Shown: piece by piece, positions 16,854 to 61,800 of the stretch | How the letters are laid out: the number at the start of each line of letters is the position of its first letter | How positions within the stretch are numbered: the first letter of the stretch is position 1 | NCBI GenBank assembly: GCA_049523215.1 | Contig: JBEKNC010000002.1 | Span: 127,963-191,962, forward strand | Source of the DNA: Bacteroidota bacterium | GTDB lineage: Bacteria > Bacteroidota > Ignavibacteria > UBA10030 | DNA length: 64,000 nucleotides | Reading direction: 5' to 3' | Position numbers and translations under genes: made by a program | The notes under the pieces: generated by a model | Told to the model about the DNA's origin: nothing | The model's database searches: none | The model's input: the letters and a program-made list of their open reading frames with translations, nothing else

Positions 16854-17939
16854 ATGAGACTGTACTCAACACCGCTGTCAGCTTCAAGATTGGAAATCAC
16901 GAAGCTTGCAATTATTGAAACAGTATTATCGCTTTCTATCTATTCATTCATTGTCCTGTATTTTGGAAGTCTTAAATACCTTGTAGTTATTATCGTTTTA
17001 GCTCCTCTTACACTATTCCGGACTGATAGTTCTTCAGAATGGGCCATTGATAAATTTAAACTCATTCTTGAAAATCTAAATAAATGGGTTTTTAATTCTT
17101 GGAATGGGAAAGCAATAATTTATCGAGTTCTGCTTGCATTTATTCTTTGGCCTTTATTTGGTGTAAGTCTGCGGGTTGTTTCGACTATTTATTTTTTTAT
17201 TAAGAATCCAATATCTGTAATTGTTGAAATGCCTCGGAACTGGATGCGACAGTGCATTTGTACAGATTTTATGCATCCACCAGAAATATTGCCAATGGAA
17301 TGTGTTAAATCTAGTATAGATAAAAATGTACATTCATTTTATACTTGGAAAAAAGGCCTTATTGATGCGCGTTATTCTGTAAAGTTTGGACTCTTAATAT
17401 TTACTTTACCTTTTTGGATTATTGGATGGATACCTTCTTTATTCTATCGTATTTCATTCAAAGCGACATCTATTGTATATCTACCCTTTATCTGGGTTGC
17501 AAATCTCACCATGCAAAATCCATTACCAGTCAAAAAACGACTTGAGAGATTTACTCAGGGAGAACTGGAAAAGGTTCGTCGTGGCTACTCTTGGATTATT
17601 ATAGTCATGTTACTTTCAAAGATTGGTTTTATATTAGGGTATATTGATATTAATTTCATAACCCAAAAATATTTAAATGAGAGAATTGTAAATACTATTA
17701 TTGTTCCAAATAGTTGGGCATCTTGGCAGATAACATTAGGAATAGACGCATTGTTAACATTCTTTCTACTCTTCTTTACTGATTCAGCACTTGCAAGACT
17801 TGATCATAAACCTTTTTTTAAAGAAGAAACGATATTAAATACTGTTTCATTTATCTCATTTATTAGAGCTGCAATCAGTATTTTTACTATTTCAATATTC
17901 TTTTTTTATGCTCTCAATTTGTTTTTTTTAAAGCAATGA
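16854..17939 (+). CDS. hypothetical polytopic membrane protein (cassette cargo)
   Basis: 361 aa with at least 8 hydrophobic helices. Very AT-rich. Followed 6 bp later by an attC-like element. Confidence 0.6.
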   Translation: MRLYSTPLSASRLEITKLAIIETVLSLSIYSFIVLYFGSLKYLVVIIVLAPLTLFRTDSSSEWAIDKFKLILENLNKWVFNSWNGKAIIYRVLLAFILWPLFGVSLRVVSTIYFFIKNPISVIVEMPRNWMRQCICTDFMHPPEILPMECVKSSIDKNVHSFYTWKKGLIDARYSVKFGLLIFTLPFWIIGWIPSLFYRISFKATSIVYLPFIWVANLTMQNPLPVKKRLERFTQGELEKVRRGYSWIIIVMLLSKIGFILGYIDINFITQKYLNERIVNTIIVPNSWASWQITLGIDALLTFFLLFFTDSALARLDHKPFFKEETILNTVSFISFIRAAISIFTISIFFFYALNLFFLKQ

Positions 17940-17944
17940 AATGT

Positions 17945-18103
17945 GCGCATAACCCGCGGCTCAAGCTGACCGGATGAGCGTTAGTGCATTTTACATTGCG
18001 CGTAGAGGTTTAGTACAGAATTGAAAGTGAAGTGAATGAACTTGGTTCGTTCCGTGCAATTTGAAAGTTCACATTGTCGCAGCTTAGCGCCGGTCCATTA
18101 GGC
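17945..18103 (+). repeat. attC-like site (long variant of the family, reverse-complement orientation relative to array II)
   Basis: GCGCATAACCCGCGGCTCAAGCTGACC … GAACTTGGTTCGTT … GCAATTTGAAAGTT … CGCAGCTTAGCGCCGGTCCATTAGGC. Near-identical to the reverse complement of the 55-61 kb elements. Confidence 0.7.
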
Positions 18104-18132
18104 GGTTGCCAAAATTAATAAGGATTACACAG

Positions 18133-19032
18133 ATGTCAAATAATATTGCGTCTCTCTCTGAATCGACCTTCAGATCAAATATTCGCCACACTGGTTTGCC
18201 AAGCTGTAATATTGATATTAGAACGTTGAAAAAGTTATTTGGTAAATTGAACGAGTGTTGTCGCGAGGCAGCCACAATTGAATTGTCAAAATTACGCCAA
18301 GGCACAATGACTACAGAGCAATACGAAAAATTCAAGAATGATGTAGCCGAATCATATAAAATTAATGTAGAGATACTTGGGAAAAAAGGGGAATACTTTT
18401 CATCAACCTCAGAATCCTTGCTTGATGAAAATGTTTTACCAAGTCAATTAGTAAGACTTACTTTCAATAGTGAATTCCTTTTTAAGACAGCATTCAATGC
18501 CGTTCCAATGAACAGCGTAAAAATCATTATTGATTTTAATAAAGCCACAGTACTTGATTTTTCCTCAAACCCTTCACACCCGACATCCAATGATAGTGTT
18601 ATTGACGTTCTTGGCCAGACAGAATCTTGGGTGGATGGAGTTTATAAGGCTGTGAATGATATTCTTAAAGAATGTAGTACGCATCGAACTTGGTTGCACA
18701 GGAGAGGAATATATGATTTATTTCTATGGTTATTTATTATTCCTCTTTCCTTCTGGAATCTTCATAAATTAGTCTTAGGGTTCCCCACTTTCTTTAATGC
18801 AATTTCCGGTGTAATTCAAGTATTTGTCTCAATCTATTTTCTACTTCTCATTATTTTACTTTATAGAGCATTCTTCAGTTATGCTCGCTGGGTTTTTCCT
18901 TATATCGAACTTAGTTCTACTTCAAAGACTACATCGACCAGGCATAGAATATTTTTTACCGGATTAACACTAACATTGACTTATGGATTGTTGAAAGATT
19001 TAATAAAGAGAATTATTGAAATTATATTTTAA
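18133..19032 (+). CDS. hypothetical protein with C-terminal transmembrane helices (cassette cargo)
   Basis: The ORF-track reading frame opens with TTG at 18106. I used the first ATG (MSNNIASL…), 30 nt after the attC core. The C-terminus has two hydrophobic helices. AT-rich. Confidence 0.55.
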   Translation: MSNNIASLSESTFRSNIRHTGLPSCNIDIRTLKKLFGKLNECCREAATIELSKLRQGTMTTEQYEKFKNDVAESYKINVEILGKKGEYFSSTSESLLDENVLPSQLVRLTFNSEFLFKTAFNAVPMNSVKIIIDFNKATVLDFSSNPSHPTSNDSVIDVLGQTESWVDGVYKAVNDILKECSTHRTWLHRRGIYDLFLWLFIIPLSFWNLHKLVLGFPTFFNAISGVIQVFVSIYFLLLIILLYRAFFSYARWVFPYIELSSTSKTTSTRHRIFFTGLTLTLTYGLLKDLIKRIIEIIF

Positions 19033-19044
19033 TGTATAGCAACT

Positions 19045-19128
19045 GCCTAACTAGGCGCTCCCGCCCAACAAGACAGCGGGGCAGGCAAGCTCGGCTTGTC
19101 CAGAAGGCGAAGCGGCCATCCGTTAGGC
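19045..19128 (+). repeat. attC-like site (short variant)
   Basis: GCCTAAC TAG GCGCTCCCGCC…GGCGGG…CAAGCTCGGCTTGT…GCGGCCATCC GTTAGGC. The termini are perfect 7-bp inverted repeats. Confidence 0.7.
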
Positions 19129-19169
19129 AGCCCTAAAAGTGGGATATCAATCAATAAAGGTGTCGTATT

Positions 19170-19448
19170 ATGATTTTCACACTCATCTATTTTTTCTTCA
19201 TCGTCTGGATAACTATTGTACTGTCTAAATCTATCAAGATAGTGCGAGAGGATCAGCGAGTTGTGATTTTTCGTTTGGGAAAGTATTTTGGTGTTGGTGG
19301 CCCAGGAATAGTTTTTATTTTACCATTTGTAGATAAAATACAAAAGGTCGATCTAAACGAGTCTTTACCAGGATGGCAAACATTACCCAAAGAACTTCTT
19401 GAAGAAAGACTGAAATCACTTGTCATCTATAAGTCAAACAGTTTTTAA
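19170..19448 (+). pseudogene. SPFH/band-7 (stomatin/HflC-like) domain protein, N-terminal fragment only
   Basis: 92 aa: TM helix followed by IVREDQRVVIFRLGKYFGVGGPGIVFILPFVDKIQKVDL, which is the start of an SPFH domain. The sequence terminates long before the domain would end. Confidence 0.5.
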
Positions 19449-19454
19449 CGGGCT

Positions 19455-19700
19455 GCCTAACCAGGCGCTCCCCGCTAATCCCGTAAAAAACACGGGACGC
19501 AAAAAACGCGAAAGCGACGGGGTTTCGCATAAAGCGCTCAACAAGCTCGGCTTGTCTGGAAGAATGCATCACAGCCGGAGCCCTGAGAATGTATCGCGCA
19601 AAGCGCGAAACAATTTCTTAAAAGTGATACAATATTTCTCAATGAGCCCACTGCAATTTACATGGCGCGCATAGGTTTAGTACAGAGAAGTTACAGACTG
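19455..19700 (+). repeat. attC-like site, rearranged or truncated
   Basis: It begins GCCTAAC CAG GCGCTCC and contains CAAGCTCGGCTTGT and the CATTTACATGGCGCGCATAGGTTTAGTACAGA block shared with the element at 17945-18103. It lacks the terminal …GTTAGGC. Confidence 0.5.
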
Positions 19701-19777
19701 GATTTAATATTGCCACAAAAAATTCTTATAAAATAAATATGCAATTGCCTAAAATATTTTAACGAAAGGATATTAAG

Positions 19778-21088
19778 ATGAATCATCGAGAAGTTATCCA
19801 AAAAGCAAAAAAGTATATAACGCTTTTGAAGCTAGTCTTTATTCTGGTGTTTATAACACAAAGAATGCTATATGCAACTGGCGGCATACCTGCCGGCAGC
19901 GGCACGATTGCAGATCCGTTTCTCATAGCAGACTATGCCGATCTGAAGGTTGTCGGAACATCGACCGCTTATCCGGGTAGCGCGGTGTACCGTCTTGTCG
20001 CCGATATCGATGCTGCGGCATCGCAATCCGAAAATGCCGGCGCTGGATTTGTGCCCATCAACGACAGTACGATCAATTATTTTACCGGCACCTTTCATGG
20101 TGCGGTTCACGTCATCAGAAACCTGCATATCAGCGGTCCGGTCGGCAATAATGCAGCGCTTTTCGCAAATTTGTGGGGTGGAACGATCGACAGTCTGGGG
20201 GTGCTGAATGCGCATGTTACTGCCGATGGCGGATACGTCGGCATTCTCGTTTCAGATAATAATACCGGAACGATCACCAATTGCTATGTCACCGGAAGTG
20301 CGATAAACACCAACGGCAGTGCGGGGGGACTCGTTTGTGGAAGCACCGGCACTATCAGCAACTGCTTTTCAACCGCCAACGTTTCGGGCACAGATTATGT
20401 TGGCGGTCTCATGGCTACGAATAGCGATATCGCGAGCAACTGCTACACAACCGGCACTGTGTCGGGGCGCAACTATGTCGGCGGGATCGCAGGGGATAAT
20501 ACATCGACGCTCACCGACTGCTACGCAATCGGGAGCGTATCGGGAAGCGGTTTGTATATCGCCGGGATCGCGGGCGGGAATCATATTGCAACCGATTGCT
20601 ACTGGGACACACTCACGACGGGGTGTGCGTCAGGATGTGCATTTTCCTCAGGGTCGTTTTCCGGAGCCGGTTTGTCAACTGCTGAGATGAAGCAGTCGTC
20701 GTCGTACAGCGGATGGGATTTTACCACCATCTGGTCTATTAATCCGAGCATCAACGGCGGATATCCGTATCTTACGTCGAACATTATTACATCCGTTCAA
20801 GCGGCGGCAATCGGTACACCGAAATCCTTTTTGCTTCTGCAAAATTACCCCAATCCTTTTAATCCGACAACGACTATACGATTCTCGGTCGAGAAGGATG
20901 GCAGAGCGGCAGTAAAAGTGTTCGATATTTTGGGTCGCGAAATGGCGATATTGTTCTATAATGTTGCAAAAGCGGGACAGTACTATACATCGACATTCAA
21001 CGGGTCGAAATTTTCATCAGGCGTGTATTTTTATACTATCGAAAGCAACAATCAACATCTAGTGAAAAAGATGATGATATTGAAATAG
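19778..21088 (+). CDS. secreted GLUG-motif repeat protein with a type IX secretion system C-terminal sorting domain
   Basis: Signal peptide. Tandem NCYxTGxVSGxxYVGG(L/I)xGxN (GLUG-like) repeats. The C-terminus …QNYPNPFNPTTTIRFSV…VKVFDILGREMAIL…GVYFYTIES… matches the Por_Secre_tail/T9SS domain. Confidence 0.85.
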   Translation: MNHREVIQKAKKYITLLKLVFILVFITQRMLYATGGIPAGSGTIADPFLIADYADLKVVGTSTAYPGSAVYRLVADIDAAASQSENAGAGFVPINDSTINYFTGTFHGAVHVIRNLHISGPVGNNAALFANLWGGTIDSLGVLNAHVTADGGYVGILVSDNNTGTITNCYVTGSAINTNGSAGGLVCGSTGTISNCFSTANVSGTDYVGGLMATNSDIASNCYTTGTVSGRNYVGGIAGDNTSTLTDCYAIGSVSGSGLYIAGIAGGNHIATDCYWDTLTTGCASGCAFSSGSFSGAGLSTAEMKQSSSYSGWDFTTIWSINPSINGGYPYLTSNIITSVQAAAIGTPKSFLLLQNYPNPFNPTTTIRFSVEKDGRAAVKVFDILGREMAILFYNVAKAGQYYTSTFNGSKFSSGVYFYTIESNNQHLVKKMMILK

Positions 21089-21103
21089 TAAACTGCAATT
21101 GCG

Positions 21104-21194
21104 GCTGACCAGGCGCTCCCGCCTAAAAGACGGCGGGCAAGCAAGCTCGGCTTGTATAGAAGAATGCATCACGCGAGGCGGTCATGTGTTAGGC
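21104..21194 (+). repeat. attC-like site (short variant, left core degenerate GCTGAC)
   Basis: GGCTGACC AG GCGCTCCCGCC…GGCGGGCAAGCAAGCTCGGCTTGT…GGTCATGT GTTAGGC. Highly similar to the site at 19045-19128. Confidence 0.6.
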
Positions 21195-21247
21195 GGGCAG
21201 AAAAAAACTACAATTTTATCAAATATAAATTAAAAGCGAGAGGACTT

Positions 21248-21952
21248 ATGAAAGCTACACTCTATTGCTGTATGATTCTATTTATGTTTTCATGTGCCGT
21301 AAAGGCGCAGGATAGTACAAGTAATGTAAAAATAGATTCCGTGCTTTATTATCAAAAGAAGATGTTAAGTCAACAAGAAAAACTTTACAATGAAGTAGTA
21401 CGTTATAAAGAACCGCTGGAGAATAAAAAATTTGGTATCGAGATCAATCCGGCATATATGCTGTTCAGCAGTGCCCGTTCATATTTTGTGTTCAGCGGAG
21501 GATTTTCATTCTTCGATATAGACCGACACGCAGAAATTGCATGTCCAATTTTTTATCAGAACGGAGCCGGTAAAAACTCAGGAGTTCATGAATTGACGCT
21601 GTGGAATCAAGATATAGTATATCGGAAATTTTTGGGACAGCATCAGGACGGATTTTACCTTGAGGGGGGCTTACGATATACGCACATCAAAGGAGAATCT
21701 AACGATGGTGTTTCCATACTGGGAGTAAGTTTATTTTCAACATCTCCTACGTCAATAATAACCACGGATAAGCTGGGAGGGATGTTTGGCATCGGGTACA
21801 GGTATTTTTCGACATCAGGATTTTATTGGGGAACAAGTCTCGTGGTAGGGGCGTATTTTTCTGCTGATGAAAGAACAATACAAGGGATAATATTGGATGA
21901 TACAAAAACCATTTTTGATTTTGAAATACTGAAATTTGGTTATGCGTTCTAA
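21248..21952 (+). CDS. outer-membrane beta-barrel protein (cassette cargo)
   Basis: Signal peptide MKATLYCCMILFMFSCAVKAQ. Alternating amphipathic strands. C-terminal …FGYAF with a terminal Phe, typical of OMP barrels. Confidence 0.6.
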   Translation: MKATLYCCMILFMFSCAVKAQDSTSNVKIDSVLYYQKKMLSQQEKLYNEVVRYKEPLENKKFGIEINPAYMLFSSARSYFVFSGGFSFFDIDRHAEIACPIFYQNGAGKNSGVHELTLWNQDIVYRKFLGQHQDGFYLEGGLRYTHIKGESNDGVSILGVSLFSTSPTSIITTDKLGGMFGIGYRYFSTSGFYWGTSLVVGAYFSADERTIQGIILDDTKTIFDFEILKFGYAF

Positions 21953-21957
21953 CTGCG

Positions 21958-22023
21958 CCCTAACATCGGCGCTCACTCGGCTTATCCAGAAGAATGCGTC
22001 GCATTTAGGAGCTATCGTTAGGT
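21958..22023 (+). repeat. attC-like site (66 bp)
   Basis: CCCTAAC ATC GGCGCTCACTCGGCTT…GAGCTATC GTTAGGT. Confidence 0.55.
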
Positions 22024-22063
22024 GATCCGAAAACTGACCTGCATTCAAAAACAGGAAGATAAA

Positions 22064-22522
22064 ATGTCTATAAATGCAAAATACGTCCATACAAATTTGA
22101 TCGCACGCGATTGGCAAAAGCTATCGTCTTTTTATCAAGAGGTATTCGGATTCAAACCAGTTCCACCTGAGCGACATTATAAAGGTATCGACCTTGAACG
22201 TGGCACAGGTGTTCAAGGATCTGAACTTCATGGCATTCATCTACGAATGCCAGGATATGATGATAGTGGTCCGACATTGGAAATTTACTCTTACTCTATT
22301 CCAAAAGAAGGTCTAGTTCCGGCGGTCAATCGTCCTGGATTTGGACACATTGCATTATCAGTTGTTGATGTGATCAAGGCTCAAGATATCGTTTTGCAGG
22401 CAGGTGGAAAATCTGTGGGAGAAATTGTAACGTTGCAAACATCTGCAGGAGCTAAGGTAACTTGGTGCTATGTGACAGATCCTGAAGGCAATATTATCGA
22501 ATTACAATCGTGGTCAAAATAA
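22064..22522 (+). CDS. VOC-family (glyoxalase/bleomycin-resistance/dioxygenase fold) protein
   Basis: About 150 aa from MSINAKYVHTNLIARDW…FGHIALSVVDV…DPEGNIIEL, typical of VOC proteins. This is a classic cassette cargo type. Confidence 0.75.
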   Translation: MSINAKYVHTNLIARDWQKLSSFYQEVFGFKPVPPERHYKGIDLERGTGVQGSELHGIHLRMPGYDDSGPTLEIYSYSIPKEGLVPAVNRPGFGHIALSVVDVIKAQDIVLQAGGKSVGEIVTLQTSAGAKVTWCYVTDPEGNIIELQSWSK

Positions 22523-22554
22523 AAGAAGTCAATTCATCAGCAAGGAGGATTACC

Positions 22555-23979
22555 ATGAGCAGAAACTTCTTATCAACCGTGTGCTGCTTTTTTATTTTTA
22601 TAGGTACCTGTTCTCAAACACTTCTTGCTCAAACATCCGAAGGAACGCCGGCACTCACAGCCCATCAAAAATTGGCCCGCAGCATATTTCGCGAACTTAT
22701 TGAAACCAACACAACTATGAATATTGGGAGCGGGAAAGCAGCTGAAGCGATGGCTTCACGCTTGAAAGCTGCGGGCTTTTCCGATAACGATATTCAACTG
22801 GTGGGCCCACGTCCTCAGAATATGAACCTCATCGTACGCTACAAAGGCAAAGGTGCCCTTCGCCCCATTCTTTTTTTTGGGCATCTGGATGTTGTCGAAG
22901 CGCTCCGGCAGGATTGGTCGTTCGATCCGTTCGTCTTTCTTGAAAAAGACGGATTTTTTTATGGTCGCGGAACATCCGACATGAAGAACGAGGATGCAGA
23001 TATCGTCGCAAACCTTATACGCCTGAAAAGTGAAGGATTCGAGCCAAATAGAGACATCATTGTGGCTTTGACGGAACACGAAGAGGGGGGTGACGCAAAC
23101 GGTATCAAGTGGCTCCTCGCAAATCGACGTGACCTCATCGATGCAGAGTTCGCCATTAACCTTGAAGGCGGTGGAGGCGATATTAAGAGCGGCAAATACT
23201 TTCTGATGGATATACAAACGGGCGAAAAGGTCTACGTGAGCTTCCAACTCGAAGTCAAGAACAAGGGCGGTCATAGCTCTTTACCAGTGAAAGACAACGC
23301 CATCTACCGACTTGCAGCAGGACTCTCGCGCCTGGCACAATACGAATTCCCAATTAGGCTTAATGAGACCACCCGGACATTTTTTCAACGGGCAGCCAGT
23401 CAAGAAAGCGGACAGGCCGCAGCAGATATGCTAGCAATCTTGAAAATACCAATTGATACGTCTGCTTCCAATCGCCTCTGCGCGTCCTCCGCTTATTACA
23501 ATGCATTACTGCGAACGACATGTGTTGCAACGATGCTCTCAGCCGGACATGCCGAGAACGCTCTGCCTCAGACTGCCCGTGCTGTTGTCAATTGTCGCAT
23601 GCTGCCAGATGATTCTATAGAGAATGTAATCGCGACCCTGACTCGTATCCTTGCCGACAGTCAAATTGCCGTCTCGCAAATCAGCCAAATGAATTTAAGT
23701 CCTCTTTCGCCGCTCCGCAAAGACGTGATGGATAACGTCGAGAAACTCACGGCCTCGATGTGGCCGGGAGTAACAGTGACTCCCGTTATGTCCACCGGTG
23801 CATCTGATGGCAGATACCTGCGCAAGGCGGGAATCCCGGTCTATGGTGTCTCAGGCATTTTTGACGATGTTGATGACATTCGTGCACACGGTAGAGATGA
23901 GAGGATTGGCATTCAAGATTTCTACAATGGGGTCGAGTTCATGTACAGGTTTATCAAGGCTCTTACCTCGGGATCGTAG
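22555..23979 (+). CDS. secreted M20-family metallopeptidase (ArgE/DapE/carboxypeptidase G2-like)
   Basis: Signal peptide, then GHLDVV…DMKNEDADIV…EHEEGG…the dimerisation domain…HGRDERI. This pattern of M20 metal ligands supports the call. Confidence 0.85.
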   Translation: MSRNFLSTVCCFFIFIGTCSQTLLAQTSEGTPALTAHQKLARSIFRELIETNTTMNIGSGKAAEAMASRLKAAGFSDNDIQLVGPRPQNMNLIVRYKGKGALRPILFFGHLDVVEALRQDWSFDPFVFLEKDGFFYGRGTSDMKNEDADIVANLIRLKSEGFEPNRDIIVALTEHEEGGDANGIKWLLANRRDLIDAEFAINLEGGGGDIKSGKYFLMDIQTGEKVYVSFQLEVKNKGGHSSLPVKDNAIYRLAAGLSRLAQYEFPIRLNETTRTFFQRAASQESGQAAADMLAILKIPIDTSASNRLCASSAYYNALLRTTCVATMLSAGHAENALPQTARAVVNCRMLPDDSIENVIATLTRILADSQIAVSQISQMNLSPLSPLRKDVMDNVEKLTASMWPGVTVTPVMSTGASDGRYLRKAGIPVYGVSGIFDDVDDIRAHGRDERIGIQDFYNGVEFMYRFIKALTSGS

Positions 23980-24013
23980 CTTGATGATGCGAACCCAATA
24001 GCAACATATTGCG

Positions 24014-24081
24014 CCCTAATCCGGCGCTCAAGTCCCGCTATCAATATTAATTCTAATGTAGCGGGATGGCGCCTGCTAACA
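24014..24081 (+). repeat. degenerate attC-like inverted repeat
   Basis: CCCTAAT CC GGCGCTCAAGTCCCGCTA … TAGCGGGATGGCGCC TGCTAACA. The internal imperfect inverted repeat is retained and the terminal cores are decayed. Confidence 0.4.
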
Positions 24082-24187
24082 TCTTGAAGCAAATTTTGTG
24101 AAAAGGTTAGAGTAGCGTCCGACACGTTGTCGGACATTTATAGGATCATTGCGATAAATTCGTCCATCTACGAGATGGACTCTACAC

Positions 24188-25025: not shown

Positions 25026-25415
25026 CTATAGTGGGTCTAAAGATTTGCCAGTTCGCACTTTCACATGTTCATAGATATCCTGCATTACTCCATCTTCATT
25101 TTCGAAGATATCAAAATTAGAATATCGAATTACTTTACAGCCAATTCCATGCAAGTAATCGTCTCTTTCGATATCATTTTGCATTCCTTTGTTTGTATAG
25201 TGCTGACTACCATCAAGTTCAATGATAAGTTTCGCTTTTGCACTATAGAAGTCGACAACATAACGACCACAAGGGAATTGTCGACGGAATTTCACACCTA
25301 ACTGATTCCCTCTTAACAAAGCCCATAGTTTTCTTTCCGCATCGGTCATCTGTTTGCGAAGCACTCGTGCAATTGGCATTAATGACCTAGAATGTTGCGC
25401 AAGATGTTTCTTCAT
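25026..25415 (-). CDS. DUF559 (Vsr-like endonuclease-fold) domain protein inserted between sdhA and sdhB
   Basis: 129 aa with …RRQFPCGRYVVDFY…LIIELDGSQH…DIERDDYLHGIGCKVIRY…, typical of the DUF559 / very-short-patch-repair-like family. Confidence 0.7.
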   Translation of the reverse strand: MKKHLAQHSRSLMPIARVLRKQMTDAERKLWALLRGNQLGVKFRRQFPCGRYVVDFYSAKAKLIIELDGSQHYTNKGMQNDIERDDYLHGIGCKVIRYSNFDIFENEDGVMQDIYEHVKVRTGKSLDPL

Positions 25416-25481
25416 CGCTTATGACCTCACCCTATCCCTCTCCTTGGAGGAGAGGGAATTGGATTTTAACATTTCAAATCC

Positions 25482-53956: not shown

Positions 53957-54126
53957 AATTGACCAATCCTTTCATTCATGATGATTTGTATGGTTTGTAA
54001 TATGGACATTTTTCTCATAGAGAATCAATTACTATGGAAACATATCTTTCTTACCACTTGTTCCTTCGGGAAAATCGCGGAACGCGATCTGGACATATTT
54101 GTGGTGGTAAGCGGACAAGTGGGCAA

Positions 54127-54327
54127 TTAATCATTCTCCTTCCGCAGTGTCGCCTTCCATCCGTCTTCCGGATCGAGCCTAACATCGACCTGCCACGGTC
54201 GACAACATACCGGGCAGTCCTGCACGAAGGACTGGCGACTTCCCCCGCTCTCATCGACGTCCAGCTCTACGTCCTCGCCGCAGTAGGGACAGTTTAGTGG
54301 AACGGGTTCAATCATCTGATTCTCCAC
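54127..54327 (-). CDS. CPXCG-motif cysteine-rich zinc-ribbon protein
   Basis: 66 aa with CPYCG…and…CPVCC, two CxxC pairs. Confidence 0.65.
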   Translation of the reverse strand: MENQMIEPVPLNCPYCGEDVELDVDESGGSRQSFVQDCPVCCRPWQVDVRLDPEDGWKATLRKEND

Positions 54328-54338
54328 GGCGGGTTAGC

Positions 54339-54472
54339 ACCTAACGATGGCCACTCCGCCAAACAACCGGCGGACAAGCCGAGCTTGTCTGCCCCGCTGT
54401 ATTTTTGTCCGTTTCGATATTCATATCGAAACGCGATCTCGACGAAGTCGGACGGGGAGCGCCTGGTTAGGC
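54339..54472 (-). repeat. attC-like site E1 (distal end of array II)
   Basis: ACCTAAC…CAAGCCGAGCTTGTC…hairpin GTTTCGATAT/ATATCGAAAC…GGAGCGCC TG GTTAGGC. Confidence 0.65.
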
Positions 54473-54503
54473 AGCGACATAATCGAATATCATGTAAATT
54501 GAT

Positions 54504-55058
54504 TTAACAAATTTTAATCGTTTCGCTGCATCTTTCTCCACCGAGTATGATTGTTTCATCTATTATAACCTTGACTTTTTCCTTAAATAAGGTTCCAAAG
54601 AATTCTTGCATAAAACTTTTACAACAATAGTTGCATAATGATTTTTGGGGCTGTTGCCCCTGTGCATAAGCACAATCACATGGCAATTTTCGCCCAATCA
54701 CTTTTAGTACCGACTTTTCAGAATCATACTGAATTTTTTCCCAACGGCTGGAATTTCCATTGTTTACAAATTCTATTAAACCGGTCAGGGTCATACTTTT
54801 AATCCATTTCACAGCATTTGTGCAATAGAAACATTCGTAACCGAGTTTGCCGAATACTTTTTGTTTTATTGACTCATCCATGTCACCGTCGACAAAACTT
54901 AAAAGTTTTGTAATTTGCTCACGGTGTGCATCTCTGACAGATTTGTTGTTGTTTGTTTTGCTTACCTGGGCGTGGAGTTGTTTATCCGGAAGCGACAAGG
55001 ATAAAAGGGAAAGCACACCACAGGCTGAGCATTTTTGAATAAATTCTTTTCTTTCCAT
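54504..55058 (-). CDS. hypothetical Cys-rich secreted protein (cassette 1)
   Basis: I placed the start at MERKEF… so that it clears the attC. Signal-like segment. Many Cys (CDCAY…CNYCC). Confidence 0.5.
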   Translation of the reverse strand: MERKEFIQKCSACGVLSLLSLSLPDKQLHAQVSKTNNNKSVRDAHREQITKLLSFVDGDMDESIKQKVFGKLGYECFYCTNAVKWIKSMTLTGLIEFVNNGNSSRWEKIQYDSEKSVLKVIGRKLPCDCAYAQGQQPQKSLCNYCCKSFMQEFFGTLFKEKVKVIIDETIILGGERCSETIKIC

Positions 55059-55091
55059 AGAATTTCTCTTTAATTGTTTATAATTGTTGCC

Positions 55092-55247
55092 GCCTAACGG
55101 ACTGGCGCTAAGCTGCGGCGTGACCAACTTTCAATTTGCACTAAACGAAATGAGTTCACATTGATAGCTTTCAAAATGTACTAAACCGTTGTGAGCCATG
55201 TTTAACGTACCCAGCTGGCAACCGTCAGCTTGAGCGCCTGGTTATTA
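55092..55247 (-). repeat. attC-like site E2 (right core degenerate GTTATTA)
   Basis: GCCTAAC GGACTG GCGCTAAGCTGCGGCGTGACCAACTTTCAATTTGCACTAAACGAAATGAGTTCA…CAGCTTGAGCGCC TG GTTATTA. Confidence 0.7.
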
Positions 55248-55322
55248 CCAAAAAGGAACCTCCCGATTATGTACATTAATGAGTCTCTAGTTCAACAATA
55301 TTCACAATCTAAGGAGGTTCCC

Positions 55323-55430
55323 ATGTATTACTCAGGTATCGATTTGCACTCTGATAATTGCTATATCACCACTGTTGACGATACTGGCGCTGTCATCTCT
55401 TGTATAACAGAGACGGAGTTATTATTTTGA
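55323..55430 (+). pseudogene. IS110-family transposase N-terminal remnant (35 codons)
   Basis: Strong RBS (TAAGGAGG). MYYSGIDLHSDNCYITTVDDTGAV resembles the IS110 DEDD-transposase N-terminus (…GIDLHK…V..D..G.V). A stop follows after 35 aa. Confidence 0.35.
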
Positions 55431-55565
55431 GCCCATACACCGATCATACAGAGACTTCCAAGAATGCCAAAGAAAAGAAATATGTATTTCATTTTTATGC
55501 TTAAAGAATGAACAGAAATGATTTTATAAAATATCTTTTTGAAATAACACAACGACACTACTATC

Positions 55566-57320
55566 TCAGTTTGTCGCTCCTTGAATCAATGCATCCAACG
55601 CTTGCTGATCCAATACAGTGTTATTATTTCTATTTAAAAGGCTACCAGTGTCCCAGTAGTACGGTAAAAGTCCATTGGCTTTTGCCTGCTTTGTTACATA
55701 TTTAAAGTAATATGCCCTTGATGCTAAATGCAAGGTTAATGCATCGCCAGTTAAAGAGGAACGGCGTATTGCAGAAAACTCGCCCAATACGACAGGAATA
55801 CCTTTGTCAACAAATTTGGTTTTCATTGATTGGAAATAGCTATCGACACTTGATTCTTCGCCCCAGGTGGCATTACGTGTTGGATCTGTTGTGGAATGAT
55901 AATCTTTACCCCAGTAATAGAACATTTTGCCCCAGCTGGCATCTGCATCCAGCCCGCAAAAATTCCATGGTGTGTAATAATGTATTTCAACCATCATGCG
56001 GTTCGAAATTTTATCGGTGGGCAGAGTCTGCATCAATTGGTTAGTCTTATCAATATCAGTTGATGGGCCTTGAACGACTAGGACCCGGTAACTATTTTTT
56101 CCACCCGTCGACCGAACCGCATTGATAAATGTCTGGTGGTACGACATTAATACCGCCATTTGTGTTGCATCTGATACATTCGGTTCATTAGCACCTGCAA
56201 ACAGTAAATGCTCATCGAAACCGCGCATTTGAGTGGCTATTTGTTCCCAGAATGCTCGCTGCTTCGCATTGTTCTCTGCCTGTTTAGCTACTGTGCAATT
56301 GTTTTCCAGCCATCCTCCATCCCAGTGAATATTAAGAAGAACATACAAGTCATTATCAACACAATATTGTATTACGTCCTTGACCCTATCGAGCCAATCT
56401 GTTTTTAATTGTGCAGTTGAACTATTTGCCATGTATTGGTTCCAGGAACAAGGTAGACGAACGGCAGTGAAGCCGCTTTGTTTCACAAATCCAATAAAGG
56501 ATTTTGTGATGCGTGGATTGCCCCAAGCCGTTTCTCCTCCAATAGCTTCCAAGGTGTTACCAATGTTCAAGCCTAGAGTAATTTTAGCAGCGAGTTCAAC
56601 AGCAGTGCTGCTCATCCCCGCTGCATCAGGAGCTATTGGTGCAGTATTATAGTTTGGATAGATATCCGCTGTCTGCGTTACGGAAATTTGTACCGGGGGA
56701 GTATATTGTGCACTCACCGTGATAATTGCTGACCGTAAATTACTGCCGGTATTTTCTGATGATGTTACAGTAATTGAAGTGTTGCCTTTAGCACCCGTAC
56801 TCTGACTATATTGCAGCCAGTCGACGGTAGAGCTAATATTCCATTGTGGTGCATCGGTGCTGATACTTATGGTAGAAGCACTGCTTGCTTTTGTAAGGTT
56901 GATGTATGTGGTGTCTGTTGAAAGAGAATAGAGATAATCAGATGAAGGCTGCGATACAACCACTTGCACCGCTTTGGCATTACCGGCAGTGATTGTGAGT
57001 ATGATGCTGCGTGGTACAATGGTTTTGGAATTTACACTCAATGTCACTGTGTCCGTTTTTTCCGTTCCGCCTGTACTTGATAAAACCAACCAATCAGAAG
57101 CAGGTTTGCTGATGTTCCATGAACCGGCGCCAGTATTAATTATGATGGTGTCGCTGCCACCTTCTTTTTGAAAATTTATTGTATCGGGACTAACAGTCAG
57201 GATATTTACTTCTTCCTTATCGGGACTAACAGTCAGGGGTTCTTCTTTCTTGCATCCGATCAAATAAATTAAGCTAAGAACAAAAATACTAAAACTTATA
57301 TATTTATTAAATCTTTTCAT
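55566..57320 (-). CDS. lipoprotein glycoside hydrolase family 5 (endoglucanase-like) with N-terminal BACON-like domains (cassette 2)
   Basis: Lipobox …LIGCKK. Two roughly 80-aa BACON-like repeats (WNIS…DWL…). GH5 catalytic domain with acid/base in GANEPN and nucleophile in VLGEFS. Confidence 0.8.
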   Translation of the reverse strand: MKRFNKYISFSIFVLSLIYLIGCKKEEPLTVSPDKEEVNILTVSPDTINFQKEGGSDTIIINTGAGSWNISKPASDWLVLSSTGGTEKTDTVTLSVNSKTIVPRSIILTITAGNAKAVQVVVSQPSSDYLYSLSTDTTYINLTKASSASTISISTDAPQWNISSTVDWLQYSQSTGAKGNTSITVTSSENTGSNLRSAIITVSAQYTPPVQISVTQTADIYPNYNTAPIAPDAAGMSSTAVELAAKITLGLNIGNTLEAIGGETAWGNPRITKSFIGFVKQSGFTAVRLPCSWNQYMANSSTAQLKTDWLDRVKDVIQYCVDNDLYVLLNIHWDGGWLENNCTVAKQAENNAKQRAFWEQIATQMRGFDEHLLFAGANEPNVSDATQMAVLMSYHQTFINAVRSTGGKNSYRVLVVQGPSTDIDKTNQLMQTLPTDKISNRMMVEIHYYTPWNFCGLDADASWGKMFYYWGKDYHSTTDPTRNATWGEESSVDSYFQSMKTKFVDKGIPVVLGEFSAIRRSSLTGDALTLHLASRAYYFKYVTKQAKANGLLPYYWDTGSLLNRNNNTVLDQQALDALIQGATN

Positions 57321-57383
57321 TGTTTTCTCGTCCTTTGATATCAATATCTCATATTTTCCATCGAAACAAATTTCTATTTTAAA

Positions 57384-57592
57384 AGCGTAAGCGGCCTAAC
57401 GGATCGGCGCTAAGCTGCGGCGTGACCAACTTTCAATTTGTACAAAACGAAATGAGTTCATGCTAGTACTTTCAATTTTGTACTGACCTATGCACGCCAT
57501 GCTTAACGCACCCAACTGGCAACCGTCAGCTAGCTTGTTGAGCGCTTTCTGCGAAATCCCGCTGTTTTCTAGCGGGAAGCGCCTGGTTAGGC
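57384..57592 (-). repeat. attC-like site E3
   Basis: GCCTAAC GGATCG GCGCTAAGCTGCGGCGTGACCAACTTTCAATTTGTACAAAACGAAATGAGTTCATGCT…hairpin CCCGCTGTTTTCTAGCGGG…AGCGCC TG GTTAGGC. Confidence 0.75.
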
Positions 57593-57616
57593 CGCAAGTG
57601 GTGATAATAATAAATT

Positions 57617-58252
57617 TTATAGCGAGTACTGAACACCAACCATCAATCCACCAAACCCAACTTTCCCTGATGAGAGAAATAATTCGGATCGTAGACTGAC
57701 TGGTTCGACAACATCAATTGCAAAACCAATACCGAAAGCAATATAGAAACCCTTATCAGTACGCGATGATTTGTATCTGATTATTGTATTACCATGGTCA
57801 ATCGATCGATATTCTTCACTTGGAAAATATTGATACCAATATCCCGGACGCAAAAGTAGATACGGACGAATAGGAAAGGATAGTGGAGCTATGATTCGCA
57901 ATCCACCCGAAAGATCAAATCGATGTGAAGCCCCCGACGGAATTCTCGGATATACTAAATAATCCGGTGGAAATCCTTCATTATATTCATGAACAAAAAT
58001 CAAATGATCATAACGGAACAAGCCGATTAATTCTAAACTAGGAGTATTTGTTGTAGTTAAACCCAAGCCTACTGTCCAATTAGGTACATAAGCAGCAAAA
58101 TCACTTCTTGGTGGCCCAATATAAACAATCAGTCCTGTTTGTAATTCAAGATTTGTTGACCTTTGACCATAGGAAACAAATGGAGTACAAATTACGATGG
58201 AGACAATAGCCAATAGTAATAAATATGATTTCATAAGTTTAGTATTCTTCAA
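57617..58252 (-). CDS. outer-membrane beta-barrel (porin-family-like) protein (cassette 3)
   Basis: Signal peptide. Alternating beta-strand pattern. Gly/aromatic-rich, 211 aa. Confidence 0.5.
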   Translation of the reverse strand: MKNTKLMKSYLLLLAIVSIVICTPFVSYGQRSTNLELQTGLIVYIGPPRSDFAAYVPNWTVGLGLTTTNTPSLELIGLFRYDHLIFVHEYNEGFPPDYLVYPRIPSGASHRFDLSGGLRIIAPLSFPIRPYLLLRPGYWYQYFPSEEYRSIDHGNTIIRYKSSRTDKGFYIAFGIGFAIDVVEPVSLRSELFLSSGKVGFGGLMVGVQYSL

Positions 58253-58267
58253 TATACAAAAACACTA

Positions 58268-58435
58268 TTAACTTGCGGCCTAACGGACGGGCGCTAAGCT
58301 GCCACGTTGATAATTTTCGTAATGCAACAAACGAAATGAGTTCATGCTGTCAATTAAATTATTAAGCACAAATACTCTAAGCGCCATGTTAATTCGTAGT
58401 AAGCTCATCTGGTCAGCTTGAGCGCCTGGTTAGGT
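58268..58435 (-). repeat. attC-like site E4
   Basis: GCCTAAC GGACGG GCGCTAAGCTGCCACG…AACGAAATGAGTTCATGCT…GCTTGAGCGCC TG GTTAGGT. Confidence 0.75.
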
Positions 58436-58445
58436 GCCATTTGCT

Positions 58446-59507
58446 TTATTTAGTTTTCGCAAGAGTACCATGTGCAACACCTCTTGTTTTACCATCGATG
58501 ATAAGGAAAACATCACTTTGGAACACAGCGCAATCATAAAATGTATCAGCTTCGTAGAGTGATTGAATATCCGAACCGTTGTAATGTCCCAATATACACT
58601 TCTGATAATTCCCATGGTAAGCAACCCATGCAAATATATCTTTTTCATTTCTTCCGAATAGCGCACCAATAGTATAATCGGGATTAGAGTACCAAACACT
58701 AAAATCTGTTCCTGAATATTTCCAAATTGTATTTTTGACTCCTGCAGTAAAATATACCCTACCATCAACTTCGTAAGCAGTGCGCTGTTCACTTTTGCTT
58801 GAGAAGATTTCACGGACATTATTTGTTCCATCAAATTCATAAAGTTTTTCAATGAATCCAGTAATGGTCACGGGATTAGTTGTCGTGTCATAAAGAACTG
58901 TTTCACCAGAAAGATAATATTTTCCAGTTTCATTTGAGCTCTTTACAATCTTGAAAAAACTTGCTGTGATATTTGGAATGTCAAGAAAAGACCATTTCGT
59001 TCCATCATATTTAAGTATGACTGCCTTTCCCGAAGTATTTGGATTGCCTACACCTCCAACCGCAAAAACATTTTGAGGAGAGTCGCCCCAAATATCAGAA
59101 ATATAAGTAAGTGAATAACCTGACAAATGAAAATCACCAAACAAGCTCCAATTGGCTCCTTCATAGTGATAAATTGGTCCGCCAGGCGAAGTACCAATCC
59201 AGACATCACTACTTGAAAAACCAAATACAGAACTTAAATTCGCTCCAGCAAGTTGACCAGTTGTTGTCCAATTGGAACCATTGAAGTGCCAAATTCCTGT
59301 AGTTCCAACAGCCCAAACATCACTTGGTGAATTTCCCCAAATTCTATCTAAATGTTGGAATGGGTCTATATGAATTGTGTCGACTTTCCATGTATAATCT
59401 CTTCGTCCAGTTACTATTTGTTCTTGCGGAGCAACGATATCTTTTTTGCAACTTAAAATGATTACGGAACATAAAAGTAGTATCACTATTTTAAATTTCA
59501 TGTTCAT
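58446..59507 (-). CDS. beta-propeller lipoprotein (BNR/Ycf48-like repeats) (cassette 4)
   Basis: Lipobox (…IILSCKK). Repeated …W(A/I)VGT…G.I..(Y/F).G..W… blades. Confidence 0.55.
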   Translation of the reverse strand: MNMKFKIVILLLCSVIILSCKKDIVAPQEQIVTGRRDYTWKVDTIHIDPFQHLDRIWGNSPSDVWAVGTTGIWHFNGSNWTTTGQLAGANLSSVFGFSSSDVWIGTSPGGPIYHYEGANWSLFGDFHLSGYSLTYISDIWGDSPQNVFAVGGVGNPNTSGKAVILKYDGTKWSFLDIPNITASFFKIVKSSNETGKYYLSGETVLYDTTTNPVTITGFIEKLYEFDGTNNVREIFSSKSEQRTAYEVDGRVYFTAGVKNTIWKYSGTDFSVWYSNPDYTIGALFGRNEKDIFAWVAYHGNYQKCILGHYNGSDIQSLYEADTFYDCAVFQSDVFLIIDGKTRGVAHGTLAKTK

Positions 59508-59541
59508 CTTTGAGCACATACAATCTTCAATTTCAAATGGC

Positions 59542-59750
59542 ACCTAACGGATCGGCGCTAAGCTGCGGCGCTGATAATTTTCAAAATGCACAAAACGAAA
59601 CAAGTTCCATGTCAAAAGATTTATCATTTGCACGCGACCTCTGCTCGCCATGAATTTTGCAGCGCGCTCATTGAGATTAAGTATCACGCTTCGCGTGATT
59701 CAGTTATCTGGACAAGCCGAACTTGAGCGCCTGGTTAGGCAGCAACTTAC
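59542..59750 (-). repeat. attC-like site E5
   Basis: ACCTAAC GGATCG GCGCTAAGCTGCGGCG…AACGAAACAAGTTCCATG…hairpin ATCACGCTTCGCGTGAT…ACTTGAGCGCC TG GTTAGGC. Confidence 0.75.
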
Positions 59751-59765
59751 TGTATATATCGTCAA

Positions 59766-60392
59766 TCACTTCATCCCCGATTGTCTACGGCGAAGGATCA
59801 TTAGCACGATGGGCAATGACACAGCAATCAGTGACACGAAATTAATTCCAAATATCCGAGGTACGGTTTTCATGTCCAGAAAGATAAAACTAAGCAACAA
59901 GAGAATAAGAATTACAGAATAGGCAATGAATCTGCGATCAGGTTCTGTTTCAATTGGTGCCCACACGCTTAGGGCAGACCGTATTTGATCGTACCCCATA
60001 AGTTCCTTGGGCACAAGAATCCATTGAAATTTGTTATTTGATTCTATTCGTAATGCGCGATTGGAAATATCAACAATGCGGGACACATCGGAACGATGTA
60101 TGACAGTTTGAAACGTGCCAACTTTTTTGCTGCTGATACTGTCCTGTTCGAGAGTAACCTGGAGTGAAGCTTCAGCTCGCGCCATCGGCATAATCTTGAC
60201 GAAGCCTGCCACCGCAATGGCAATAGCGCAAGGAACAATGATGAATGGAAAGACGATAATTGGAAAGGGATCCTGAAGATAGCTTGTGACCATTAATACG
60301 GTTACTACGGATCCGATTAAGGCAAACACCTTGGTGGCAAAGCGGCGCTTTATTTGTTCTGACTGCTCTGTTGAGAATTGGAATGTCGGCAT
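59766..60392 (-). CDS. hypothetical membrane protein (cassette 5)
   Basis: I placed the start at MPTFQF… so that it clears the attC. Three or four TM helices. Confidence 0.5.
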   Translation of the reverse strand: MPTFQFSTEQSEQIKRRFATKVFALIGSVVTVLMVTSYLQDPFPIIVFPFIIVPCAIAIAVAGFVKIMPMARAEASLQVTLEQDSISSKKVGTFQTVIHRSDVSRIVDISNRALRIESNNKFQWILVPKELMGYDQIRSALSVWAPIETEPDRRFIAYSVILILLLLSFIFLDMKTVPRIFGINFVSLIAVSLPIVLMILRRRQSGMK

Positions 60393-60412
60393 ATTCTTAA
60401 CCTCTTGAGTTG

Positions 60413-60639
60413 CCACCTAACGGATGGCAACTAAGCTGCGGCAACGAGAAGCCGCAATTTTCTGAAAACGAACCAAGTTCATACTGATAAGTTTATTATT
60501 AAACATCTAAACCTCTATTAGCCATACTTAACGCACCACGCTCATTCAAATTTAGTATCGCGCTTTGCGCGATTCAATTATCTGGACAAGCCGAGCTTGC
60601 CTGCCCCGCTGTTTTCTAGCGGGGAGCGCCTGGTTAGGC
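60413..60639 (-). repeat. attC-like site E6 (longest, 227 bp)
   Basis: ACCTAAC GGATGG CAACTAAGCTGCGGCAACG…AACGAACCAAGTTCATACT…ATCGCGCTTTGCGCGAT…CCCCGCTGTTTTCTAGCGGGG AGCGCC TG GTTAGGC. Confidence 0.75.
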
Positions 60640-60680
60640 AACCACTACCGCAACAATCTCTACACAACATTAAAAGTTAC

Positions 60681-60953
60681 TCAATGAGAATTATTTTGAG
60701 TGCTATCCTTCAGCCGCAGGAGAGGTGTATATAACTCACGGTTCAGAGAATCGAGTTTTCTCTGACCCATTTCTTCTTTAGCTGGTTTATGTTTTTTGAG
60801 TTTCTGCTTAGGTGCTTGTATCTTCGATTTATTTCTCTGAGCACCTGTGGTATCTGACGATGCAGGTGTGGACTTCTTTTCCTGTGCGGCATTTGCCGGT
60901 AGGATACAGAAGGTGAACCCAAAAGCCAGAACGATTATAATAATTTTTTTCAT
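60681..60953 (-). CDS. small secreted Lys-rich protein (cassette 6)
   Basis: Signal peptide MKKIIIIVLAFGFTFCILPANA, then a low-complexity K/Q-rich region. Confidence 0.5.
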   Translation of the reverse strand: MKKIIIIVLAFGFTFCILPANAAQEKKSTPASSDTTGAQRNKSKIQAPKQKLKKHKPAKEEMGQRKLDSLNRELYTPLLRLKDSTQNNSH

Positions 60954-60976
60954 ATATATTCTCCAGACAGGTGGTT

Positions 60977-61134
60977 GCCTAACGGATGGCGGCTAAGCTG
61001 CCGCACTGAATATTATCAAAATACACAAAACGAAAAAAGTTCATGCTGAAAAGTTTATTATTAAAAACTAAAACCTATGCAAGCCATGCTTAACGTCGTA
61101 CGCTCATTCGGTCAGCTTGAGCCGCTGGTTAGGG
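60977..61134 (-). repeat. attC-like site E7
   Basis: GCCTAAC GGATGG CGGCTAAGCTGCCGC…AACGAAAAAAGTTCATGCT…CAGCTTGAGCCGC TG GTTAGGG. Confidence 0.75.
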
Positions 61135-61143
61135 CGCACGTTA

Positions 61144-61746
61144 TTAATGCAAGTAATTAAATGACAATGGACTATACTTAAAATTGTGATGCCAATACAT
61201 TTTTATATTTGGCGAATTTAATATTCGATTGTTAGCGTGAATATCTTTAATCGAAAACACAATGCTGTCCTTCATTTTATAGCTAACATCGTATAGCAAC
61301 ACAATGTGTTTTTCATTGGGCGTTATAAATACTGTATCACTAATTGAGCAAGCCCTTGATTGCTTACCGCTTGTATTTGTATATATTTCGCGAGCATTTA
61401 TTATGGTGGGGGAGTTTATACAAGAATTACAAAGGGATACTTTTTTCAAGTCCATTTTCATAGTATCCATGTATGTCGAGAGTATAAGATCAACTTCTAC
61501 TGGCCCCAAATCATGCGGCGCGATAAGACCAAATGGAAATAATGGTACTAACGGCGGACCAATCGCAAAGAATGCATCAGACGACATGGAAAGACGGATA
61601 TTTAAGTTATCTTTTGAGCATTGAATAAAGTCTTGTGATTTGCCGGAATTATTTCCTTCAGGATTCCATTCATTATGACGTTCTATATTAGAACATCCAT
61701 ATAACATAAAAGATAAAACAAGAAGTATAAATAATATGCTTTTCAT
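61144..61746 (-). CDS. hypothetical lipoprotein (cassette 7, closest to the integrase-proximal end; AT-rich)
   Basis: Lipobox …MLYGCSN. 200 aa with no recognisable family. Confidence 0.5.
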   Translation of the reverse strand: MKSILFILLVLSFMLYGCSNIERHNEWNPEGNNSGKSQDFIQCSKDNLNIRLSMSSDAFFAIGPPLVPLFPFGLIAPHDLGPVEVDLILSTYMDTMKMDLKKVSLCNSCINSPTIINAREIYTNTSGKQSRACSISDTVFITPNEKHIVLLYDVSYKMKDSIVFSIKDIHANNRILNSPNIKMYWHHNFKYSPLSFNYLH

Positions 61747-61754
61747 TTTATTTG

Positions 61755-61800
61755 CCGTGCGCCCTAACTACTGATTAGATAGACTCAGTCTATCTTTTGC
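61755..61800 (-). repeat. terminal core (GTTAGGG / CCCTAAC) followed by a 17-bp palindrome; end of array II, possible attI-like remnant
   Basis: GCGCCCTAAC TACTGATTA GATAGACTCAGTCTATC TTTTGCGC. Only the core half of an attC is present, followed by the perfect palindrome GATAGACT C AGTCTATC. Confidence 0.4.

Follow-up and report, generated by a model that had tools for sequence, protein, structure and literature searches.

The window analysed here is a 64,000-nt stretch (positions 127,963–191,962 of contig JBEKNC010000002.1, assembly GCA_049523215.1) from a Bacteroidota bacterium of the class Ignavibacteria. It belongs to a metagenome contig of 255 kb (ENA ERZ27250059, k141_92839), one end of which is reached about 1 kb left of the window. 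The window contains two convergent arrays of integron gene cassettes, here called array I and array II, and neither has an integron integrase gene (intI) beside it. Clusters of attC sites that have no integron integrase (CALINs) outnumber complete integrons. Their origin and activity are debated, and they have been regarded as remnants, as split arrays and as insertions at secondary sites. The two arrays are probably independent platforms, each headed by its own attI site, at which an integron integrase (IntI) supplied in trans still exchanges cassettes. Loci of this and related genomes are designated below by L numbers.

A repeat search finds a single family of intergenic repeats, in direct orientation at 54–61 kb and in inverted orientation between 18–24 kb and 54–61 kb. 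With three or fewer mismatches, the 3' attC motif GCAGCTTAGCGCCNNTCCRTTAG has seven matches in the window versus 0.00 expected, one on the plus strand at 18079 and six on the minus strand at 55094–60979. The 5' attC motif CCTAACCAGGCGCTC has 12 matches versus 0.71 expected; they are found on the plus strand only at 19046–24015 and on the minus strand only at 54457–61119, barring a lone off-pattern match at 43635, which has three mismatches and is at chance level. An open reading frame (ORF) is located directly 5' of every attC repeat, on the same strand as the repeat. The original prediction, made from the sequence alone, placed the cargo of array I on the plus strand and that of array II on the minus strand, about 30 kb apart, and the matches segregate by strand in this manner.

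Array I occupies 16787–24083 of the plus strand including its attI core, and its cassettes start at 16801. It has seven ORFs in at most six cassettes, and six attC sites: 17947–18103, 19045–19128, 19455–19690 (without its 3' half), 21103–21194, 21957–22023 and 24013–24083 (degenerate). The last unit consists of two genes, one for a glyoxalase and one for an M20 peptidase. Array II occupies 61826–54339 of the minus strand including attI. Its seven cassettes (61767–54339) have seven attC sites, at 60977–61135, 60415–60640, 59542–59741, 58278–58436, 57391–57593, 55092–55249 and 54339–54473, and the number of ORFs is eight if the CPXCG gene just past the end is counted. Both ends are kept in 12 of the 13 attC sites of the two arrays. 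At the distal end of array II (52994–54327, minus strand), a zinc-alcohol dehydrogenase (ADH)-like gene and the CPXCG gene, both identified with Pfam, have no intact attC; they look like old, fixed cassettes. The GC content of the window is around 43%, and it is lower and uneven inside both arrays, ranging from 0.34 to 0.49 along array I.

The polarity of attC, with the R'' box (RYYYAAC) first and the R' box (GTTRRRY) last, places the attI-proximal ends at 16,800 for array I and at 61,768 for array II. Both ends are directed outward, as had been proposed. The inner ends, 24,083 and 54,339, are separated by 30.3 kb. Between them and outside both arrays lies a housekeeping block (24188–52770) with sdhB, an ORF of the DUF559 family, sdhA, sdhC, ftsX, pheA (prephenate dehydratase), recR, tRNA-Asn, a GH31 glycoside hydrolase gene and two-component systems or sensor kinases, which agrees with the central block of the original prediction (sdhCAB, recR, tRNA-Asn, glycoside hydrolases). 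The block is partly syntenic with SPRUCE_123 (L014). The number of arrays, given as two, has to be raised to at least three on the contig. Past the right end of the window, the next 10 kb contain a porin gene and pstSCAB-phoU, followed by a third array, which lies on the minus strand of block L001 at 15644–20280 (about 68.0–72.7 kb in window coordinates) and has an attI of its own. The last attC of the third array is cut short exactly where phoU ends; in L002, a related contig from the Joint Genome Institute (JGI), a second pst operon is present on the far side of the array.

The attC sites have R'' GCCTAAC and R' GTTAGGC at most sites, and the TAAC/GTTA positions are paired in more than 95% of 263 distinct family members. 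After R'' and a 5-nt spacer comes L'', GCT[C]AAGC, which pairs with L', GCTTAGC, and leaves one extrahelical base; classical attC sites, such as that of aadA7, have this same L''/L' arrangement. There are two types of sites: short ones of 66–92 nt, and long ones with a median of 160 nt, typically 156–198 nt, the longest in the window being about 225 nt. The long type was sampled as 263 distinct sites from the window and related loci. In these, a 6-bp inner stem is seen in three fully complementary variants, GGCGCT/AGCGCC (120 sites), GCGGCT/AGCCGC (41 sites) and GCAACT/AGTTGC (18 sites). Pairing in this stem reaches 92.5%; when the 3' halves were shuffled 500 times, it averaged 80.3% and never exceeded 82.9%. 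The compensatory variants and the pairing above shuffled levels indicate selection on the hairpin and not on the sequence alone. Folding z-scores are weak for the short sites, and covariation across sites is the informative test. The centre of the long attC is itself conserved (TGAACTYRTTTCGTTT...GCAAATTGAAA, for example at 58278–58436 and 59542–59741) and contains recurring small hairpin modules; it is much longer than is usual for an attC variable region.

The same attC family is present in at least 109 8-kb blocks of GTDB species representatives, nearly all from Ignavibacteriota or "Bacteroidota" metagenome-assembled genomes (MAGs) of peat, fen and soil. The scan used a 23-nt 3' motif, as a 15-mer would bring about 1,000 chance matches. 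In this lineage, the family occupies dozens of loci per genome, and therefore its sharing by two arrays says nothing about their common origin. In five attC-bearing blocks, tblastn with an IntI1 query (used as a probe only) finds full-length IntI homologues of 46–50% identity, which are canonically placed and divergent from the cassettes. The IntI of L015, L012 and L044, as well as P0017 (on L113) and P0127, score 420–454 bits with TIGR02249, the NCBIfam model for integron integrases, for which the cutoff is 265. An intI gene adjoins the array in L012, L015, L044, L048, L088, L112 and L113. Since intI genes of this class are found beside the attC family, the family belongs to genuine integrons, which have been reported before in Ignavibacteriae (PMC9024848). 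The repeats in the window can thus be identified as genuine integron attC sites. They may be recombined by an integron integrase, which the linkage to intI and the replacement of cassettes in relatives support indirectly.

In the relatives that bear intI, 270 bp separate the start codon of intI from the first cassette, and this region ends with ...GCAGTCTAATCATA G/TTAGG (the slash marks the crossover). A search for CTAAT[CT]A-N2-3-GTTA finds 33 array heads in 860 kb, and these fall into several sequence types. Type A contains two palindromes, GTTAGGCTGCA..TGCAGTCTAAC, followed by the terminal site, and abuts intI in L015, L088, L044, L048 and L113 (type-A-like). Type B is accompanied by a full intI in L012, by a 134-aa intI stub in L054 and by a start-codon stub in L110, and has no intI in L086, L104 and array II. 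Type C is found at the head of the third array, and also in L002 and L046.

The attI-type motif CTAATCA-N3-GTTAGG is found at the outer ends of both arrays I and II. In array II it belongs to a full attI of type B, which corresponds to 61762–61826 on the minus strand, with AAAGTCTATATATCATGCTTATAAGCGCAAAAGATAGACTGAGTCTATCTAATCAGTA G/TTAGGG and the crossover G at 61768. It is 88.7% identical to L054 (62 nt), 81.7% to L110 (82 nt) and 78.8% to L012 (66 nt). The half-site and palindrome at 61755–61800 were previously thought to be a possible attI remnant left after loss of the integrase. The derivation from attI holds, but the site is a complete attI, with 79–89% identity to attI sites linked to intI or intI stubs, and not a remnant.

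In place of intI, a 118-nt leader (61827–61944, minus strand) lies upstream of this attI, with a sharp 5' boundary at CTTGCCCTC. It is common only to the two other type-B heads without intI, L086 (82% over 196 nt) and L104 (93% over 111 nt), which are on the same contig of the MAG SPRUCE_214. The leader and attI-B form a module of about 173 nt, seen in the window, at 2794–2989 of L086 and at 5771–5881 of L104, with the same boundary CTTGCCCTC in three unrelated contexts, two of them in one MAG contig.

The clearest case of integrase loss is not the head of array II, where it had been suspected, but that of array I. The attI core of array I (16787–16806, plus strand) is the 20-nt sequence GACCTAATCACAGGTTAGGC, or GACCTAATCACAG G/TTAGGC, with an inverted L box CTAAT and an R box GTTAGGC. 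It fits the terminal motif CTAAT[CT]A-N2-3-GTTA of array heads, including heads that adjoin intI. Upstream of these 20 nt, the sequence is homologous to none of the attI types. Further upstream, 16251–16521 (no strand assigned) contains a hairpin like repetitive extragenic palindromic (REP) elements and a CGCTTTCTTTT..AAAAGAAAGCG hairpin. This segment is homologous to DNA 50–200 nt past the stop codon of intI in L044 (88.6% over 70 nt), L015 (85.4% over 48 nt) and L112 (72.4% over 152 nt). It is also 75.9% identical over 174 nt to L043, in which the intI ORF is cleanly deleted between the 3' flank and the intI promoter region.

L113 (ENA ERZ25039515) is syntenic with the left part of the window. 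It has a histidine kinase gene, Obg, a 419-aa gene and a 1216-aa tetratricopeptide repeat (TPR) gene in the order of the window, at 77–81% nucleotide identity to 3860–15903. After the TPR gene, L113 contains a response-regulator gene absent from the window, 8-nt repeats, an intact intI (454 bits with TIGR02249), a type-A-like attI and cassettes. The distance between the 8-nt repeats and the attI core is about 700 bp in the window versus about 1800 bp in L113. The homologue of the intI 3' flank, together with the L113 synteny at shorter spacing, points to a deletion of intI and most of attI at array I. Array I is, as judged from these comparisons, a former complete integron. The 8-nt periodic repeats (GATTGAGT-like) are found at 11765–11843, 12197–12297 and 15990–16084 in the window, where they flank a gene of the 23S-rRNA-IVP family and the 1216-aa TPR gene. 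Repeats of the same GATTGAGT type adjoin intI in L113 (reverse complement, 9320–9395).

The absence of intI from both outer ends within the window, noted in the original prediction, holds up. Pfam and NCBIfam scans, which covered the large outer-flank ORFs, the cassettes and the greater part of the central block, contain no integrase or tyrosine recombinase, and tblastn with the IntI proteins of five relatives gives a best E of 0.47 in the window and its 10-kb right extension. Remnants of intI at either array head were sought with the IntI1 probe and the five IntI proteins, and tblastn gives nothing better than E = 0.47. A 134-aa ORF at 16393–16797 has no family match. The 16 kb left of array I and the 10 kb right of array II have no intI. 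The search past the window that had been suggested finds none in the 10 kb to the right, and on the left the contig ends after about 1 kb. A protein search with the IntI of fen_1299, the closest reference MAG, returns thousands of integron integrases; the loci looked up among them come from other samples, and none is from the assembly of the window. Contigs with closely related intI in public metagenome assemblies are mostly 1–4 kb, and the intI of this genome may therefore be on a short contig left out of the bin. The repeated attI and attC sequences are probably points at which assemblies fragment; integrases would then be missed in binned genomes, and CALINs would be overcounted.

Comparison with relatives, proposed as a check of the original prediction, supports independent platforms through the synteny with L113 and through L027 and L002. 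It also reveals cassette turnover. L001 and L002 are 92–96% identical in attI-C and its flanks, and the DsrE cassette alone is shared; five or six other cassettes are present in L001 where L002 has four different ones. In L027 of fen_1299, the distal genes of array II are common with the window at 88–93%, and the proximal cassettes differ. The same MAG has an intact intI on another contig (L088). The type-A heads without intI form pairs, L004/L071 and L043/L075, which share kilobases of upstream flank at 92–95% and the same intI-deletion junction, while downstream there is only attC similarity. As different cassettes follow the same deletion junction, replacement must have continued there after the loss of intI, and this requires an integrase in trans. 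In the blocks of the closed chromosome OY969585.1 that were examined, there are one intI (L015) and at least four type-A heads without intI (L055, L071, L100 and L066); the L066 head retains only about 10 codons of intI. Some 4 kb from the head of L071 there is a tyrosine recombinase, which is rejected as an IntI because its score of 87 bits is below the cutoff of 265.

Some neighbouring features are to be added. The DUF559 (endonuclease-like) ORF is located at 25026–25415, between sdhB and sdhA, within the normally compact sdh operon. A 59-nt direct repeat with 80% identity is seen at 50701–50759 and 62009–62067, each copy upstream of a plus-strand gene, the first being a 263-aa gene (50791) and the second the porin gene (62402), and may be a shared regulatory element. 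An Rfam scan of the window has the tRNA as its sole match. A replication terminus between the arrays, with which both of them would run in the direction of replication, was considered and rejected: the cumulative GC skew has no turning point and tracks gene strand, and the sole dif-like match (51963, three mismatches) is unconvincing. The arrays examined in OY969585.1 are all on the plus strand between 0.22 and 2.49 Mb and all on the minus strand between 2.83 and 3.57 Mb, and those of the window are opposite to each other at a distance of 30 kb. The regional uniformity in OY969585.1 may reflect orientation relative to replication. If arrays I and II share one replichore, one of them would have the orientation that favours attC folding in Vibrio.

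An element of the IS110 family of insertion sequences (IS) has left a stub at 55245–55565 on the plus strand, which interrupts the attC at 55092–55249 within its R'' box and contains the first 35 codons (55323–55430). The stub is 78–81% identical over about 310 nt to loci with a 333-aa IS110 transposase (PF01548 and PF02371) after attC. Full-length copies in relatives (L089 2925–3923, L098 and L021) have the same position relative to attC. This suggests that the IS110-family element is an attC-targeting IS, presumably comparable to the IS1111-attC group.

We consider it likely that these arrays are independent attI-headed platforms without an integrase of their own, at which cassettes are still exchanged by IntI in trans. 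Each platform would be an array of promoterless gene cassettes, each ending in attC. The attC, when single-stranded, would fold into a hairpin recognised by the integron integrase, and new cassettes would enter each array at its own attI, between G and TT of GTTAGG. Array I would be the ancestral chromosomal integron locus of the lineage, beside the 1216-aa TPR gene, after deletion of intI and most of attI. The other two, array II and the array beyond the window, have complete attI sites of two other types and no adjoining intI. The convergent layout can then be understood as separate platforms in opposite orientation on both sides of core genes, and not as the trace of a broken array. An IntI encoded elsewhere in the genome, or transiently supplied, would insert and excise the cassettes. 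Judging from the relatives, IntI probably acts in trans at these heads.

Several observations weigh against this interpretation. Within the 75 kb of this genome examined, no intI is found, and the activity in trans is inferred from relatives. The attI of array I is kept only in part, as the 20-nt core. The same array has other signs of decay, the truncated attC at 19455–19690 and the degenerate terminal attC at 24013–24083, and its junction on the sdhB side rests on one assembly. In array II, the IS110 stub is a sign of decay. Folding of single sites as DNA produces the expected R''/R' closing helix, with z-scores of only −0.5 to −4 versus shuffles, which is weak. The classical attC range is 57–141 nt. 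The short type fits this range, and most attC sites here, with a median of 160 nt, exceed it; the range is descriptive, and such sites could still be members of the class. Matches to sigma-70-like promoters directed to the cassettes are found at 61943–61915 and 61864–61836 for array II and at 16572–16600 for array I, and their number is no higher than in shuffles.

A wider model can be proposed more tentatively. One intI, resident or occasionally acquired, might serve many scattered attI-headed arrays as a distributed integron. In this model, CALINs would be no debris but working secondary platforms that go on capturing cassettes, and the head without intI (leader and attI, about 173 nt) would be copied to new sites. 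It is supported by the one intI and at least four intI-less heads in the blocks of OY969585.1 examined, by the presence of the attI-B module in three contexts, and by the different cassettes behind the same deletion junction. We regard this model as possible, though somewhat less likely than not.

The arrays might instead be independent CALINs that are now inert and slowly decaying, with no functional IntI in the genome. The lack of intI in the 75 kb examined, the truncated and degenerate attC sites of array I, the IS110 stub and the distal genes without attC are all consistent with such fossils, and half of all CALINs are in genomes without intI (PMC4889954). However, cassettes are replaced almost completely at the same intI-less heads between close relatives, both ends are kept in nearly all attC sites of the window, and attI-B is complete. 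An intact intI is also present elsewhere in fen_1299 and in OY969585.1. These facts make inert arrays unlikely.

The original prediction offered two alternatives, independent CALINs or a single ancestral array that was split and in part inverted by attC × attC recombination or another rearrangement. The first is upheld by the different attI heads, the L113 intI locus and the third attI type. The second would leave one true attI end only, the other outer end being an attC breakpoint from inside the array. The common attC family and the inverted orientation at a distance of about 30 kb speak for it, and rearrangements that split integrons have been proposed as a source of CALINs (PMC4889954). 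Yet both outer ends have attI-type heads, and the heads differ from each other, which argues against a single array. Array I is syntenic with the intI locus of L113, and other MAGs keep the distal end of array II (L027) and the head of the third array (L002) at the corresponding positions. The attC family, spread over dozens of loci in relatives, is no sign of one origin. A split and inverted array is thus very improbable.

Insertion of cassettes by an integrase at secondary sites, the attG route, could have built the arrays de novo, so that they never were integrons. This route has been shown experimentally and proposed for small CALINs and for single attC sites lacking integron integrases (SALINs) (10.1101/2022.09.11.507474), and the head of array I is indeed no more than a short core that contains GTT. 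However, blocks of 65–100 nt homologous to full attI regions stand at the start of array II and the third array, and array I occupies the place at which a syntenic relative has intI, with the 3' flank of intI kept, so that an origin of this kind deserves hardly any credence. The reading of the repeats as ordinary REP- or terminator-like intergenic palindromes unrelated to integrons, which their palindromic nature, intergenic position and abundance might suggest, can be dismissed almost completely because they are linked to bona fide intI and attI in relatives, have canonical core sites, occur one per gene and always in the orientation of the gene, and are followed by different gene content in close relatives.

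The independent platforms can be compared with known systems. A CALIN has at least two clustered attC sites and no intI within 4 kb (also 10 kb) (PMC4889954); array I has six attC sites, array II has seven, and neither has an intI nearby. Arrays I and II appear to be independent CALINs in this sense, derived from integron platforms. Like the CALINs of Cury et al. (2016) (PMC4889954), they are small series of attC sites without intI within 4–10 kb, with cassettes mostly of unknown function. Unlike in those, a recognisable attI is present on each array, and the lost intI of array I can be placed by synteny. In that study, intI pseudogenes were near only 15 of 279 CALINs, and attI sites at CALINs were not identified (PMC4889954). 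CALIN-type elements are thus already known; what the present ones add is an origin that is legible, for each of them, in the attI head and in the synteny.

The superintegron of Vibrio cholerae and other sedentary chromosomal integrons are similar in being chromosomal, with homogeneous lineage-specific attC sites, a conserved locus and variable cassettes of diverse unknown function. They differ from the present arrays, which have no adjacent intI, are short where those integrons have tens to hundreds of cassettes, occur as several platforms per chromosome and have attC sites mostly of 156–198 nt. Among the features of sedentary chromosomal integrons, the locus is conserved (L113, L027 and L002) and the attC sites are homogeneous, and the size of the arrays is 6–7 attC sites, compared with more than 19 in Cury et al. 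(PMC4889954). The ilvD integrons of Xanthomonas with inactivated intI also have an ancestral fixed locus at which intI was repeatedly lost by deletions (Gillings et al. 2005, as cited in 10.1101/2025.06.18.660453). According to that source, the loss of intI there is associated with fixation of the arrays, whereas the relatives studied here replace cassettes after the loss, and several attI types coexist. The attG/SALIN route of Loot et al. (10.1101/2022.09.11.507474) likewise places cassettes or small arrays away from any intI, but at short GTT-type secondary sites, in contrast to the full attI homologues that serve as heads here. A literature search on orphan or multiple attI sites returned nothing relevant.

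The origin of CALINs is directly readable in this contig, since one array is at the intI locus of a relative and the others have intact attI sites of types that abut intI. If the activity in trans is true, arrays with attI and without integrase would be live sites of cassette capture, and this would change how the content and activity of integrons are counted in genomes and MAGs. The lineage supplies defined attI, attC and IntI for recombination tests outside Proteobacteria. The relatives point to a chromosome-wide set of platforms that have no integrase of their own and may still exchange cassettes.

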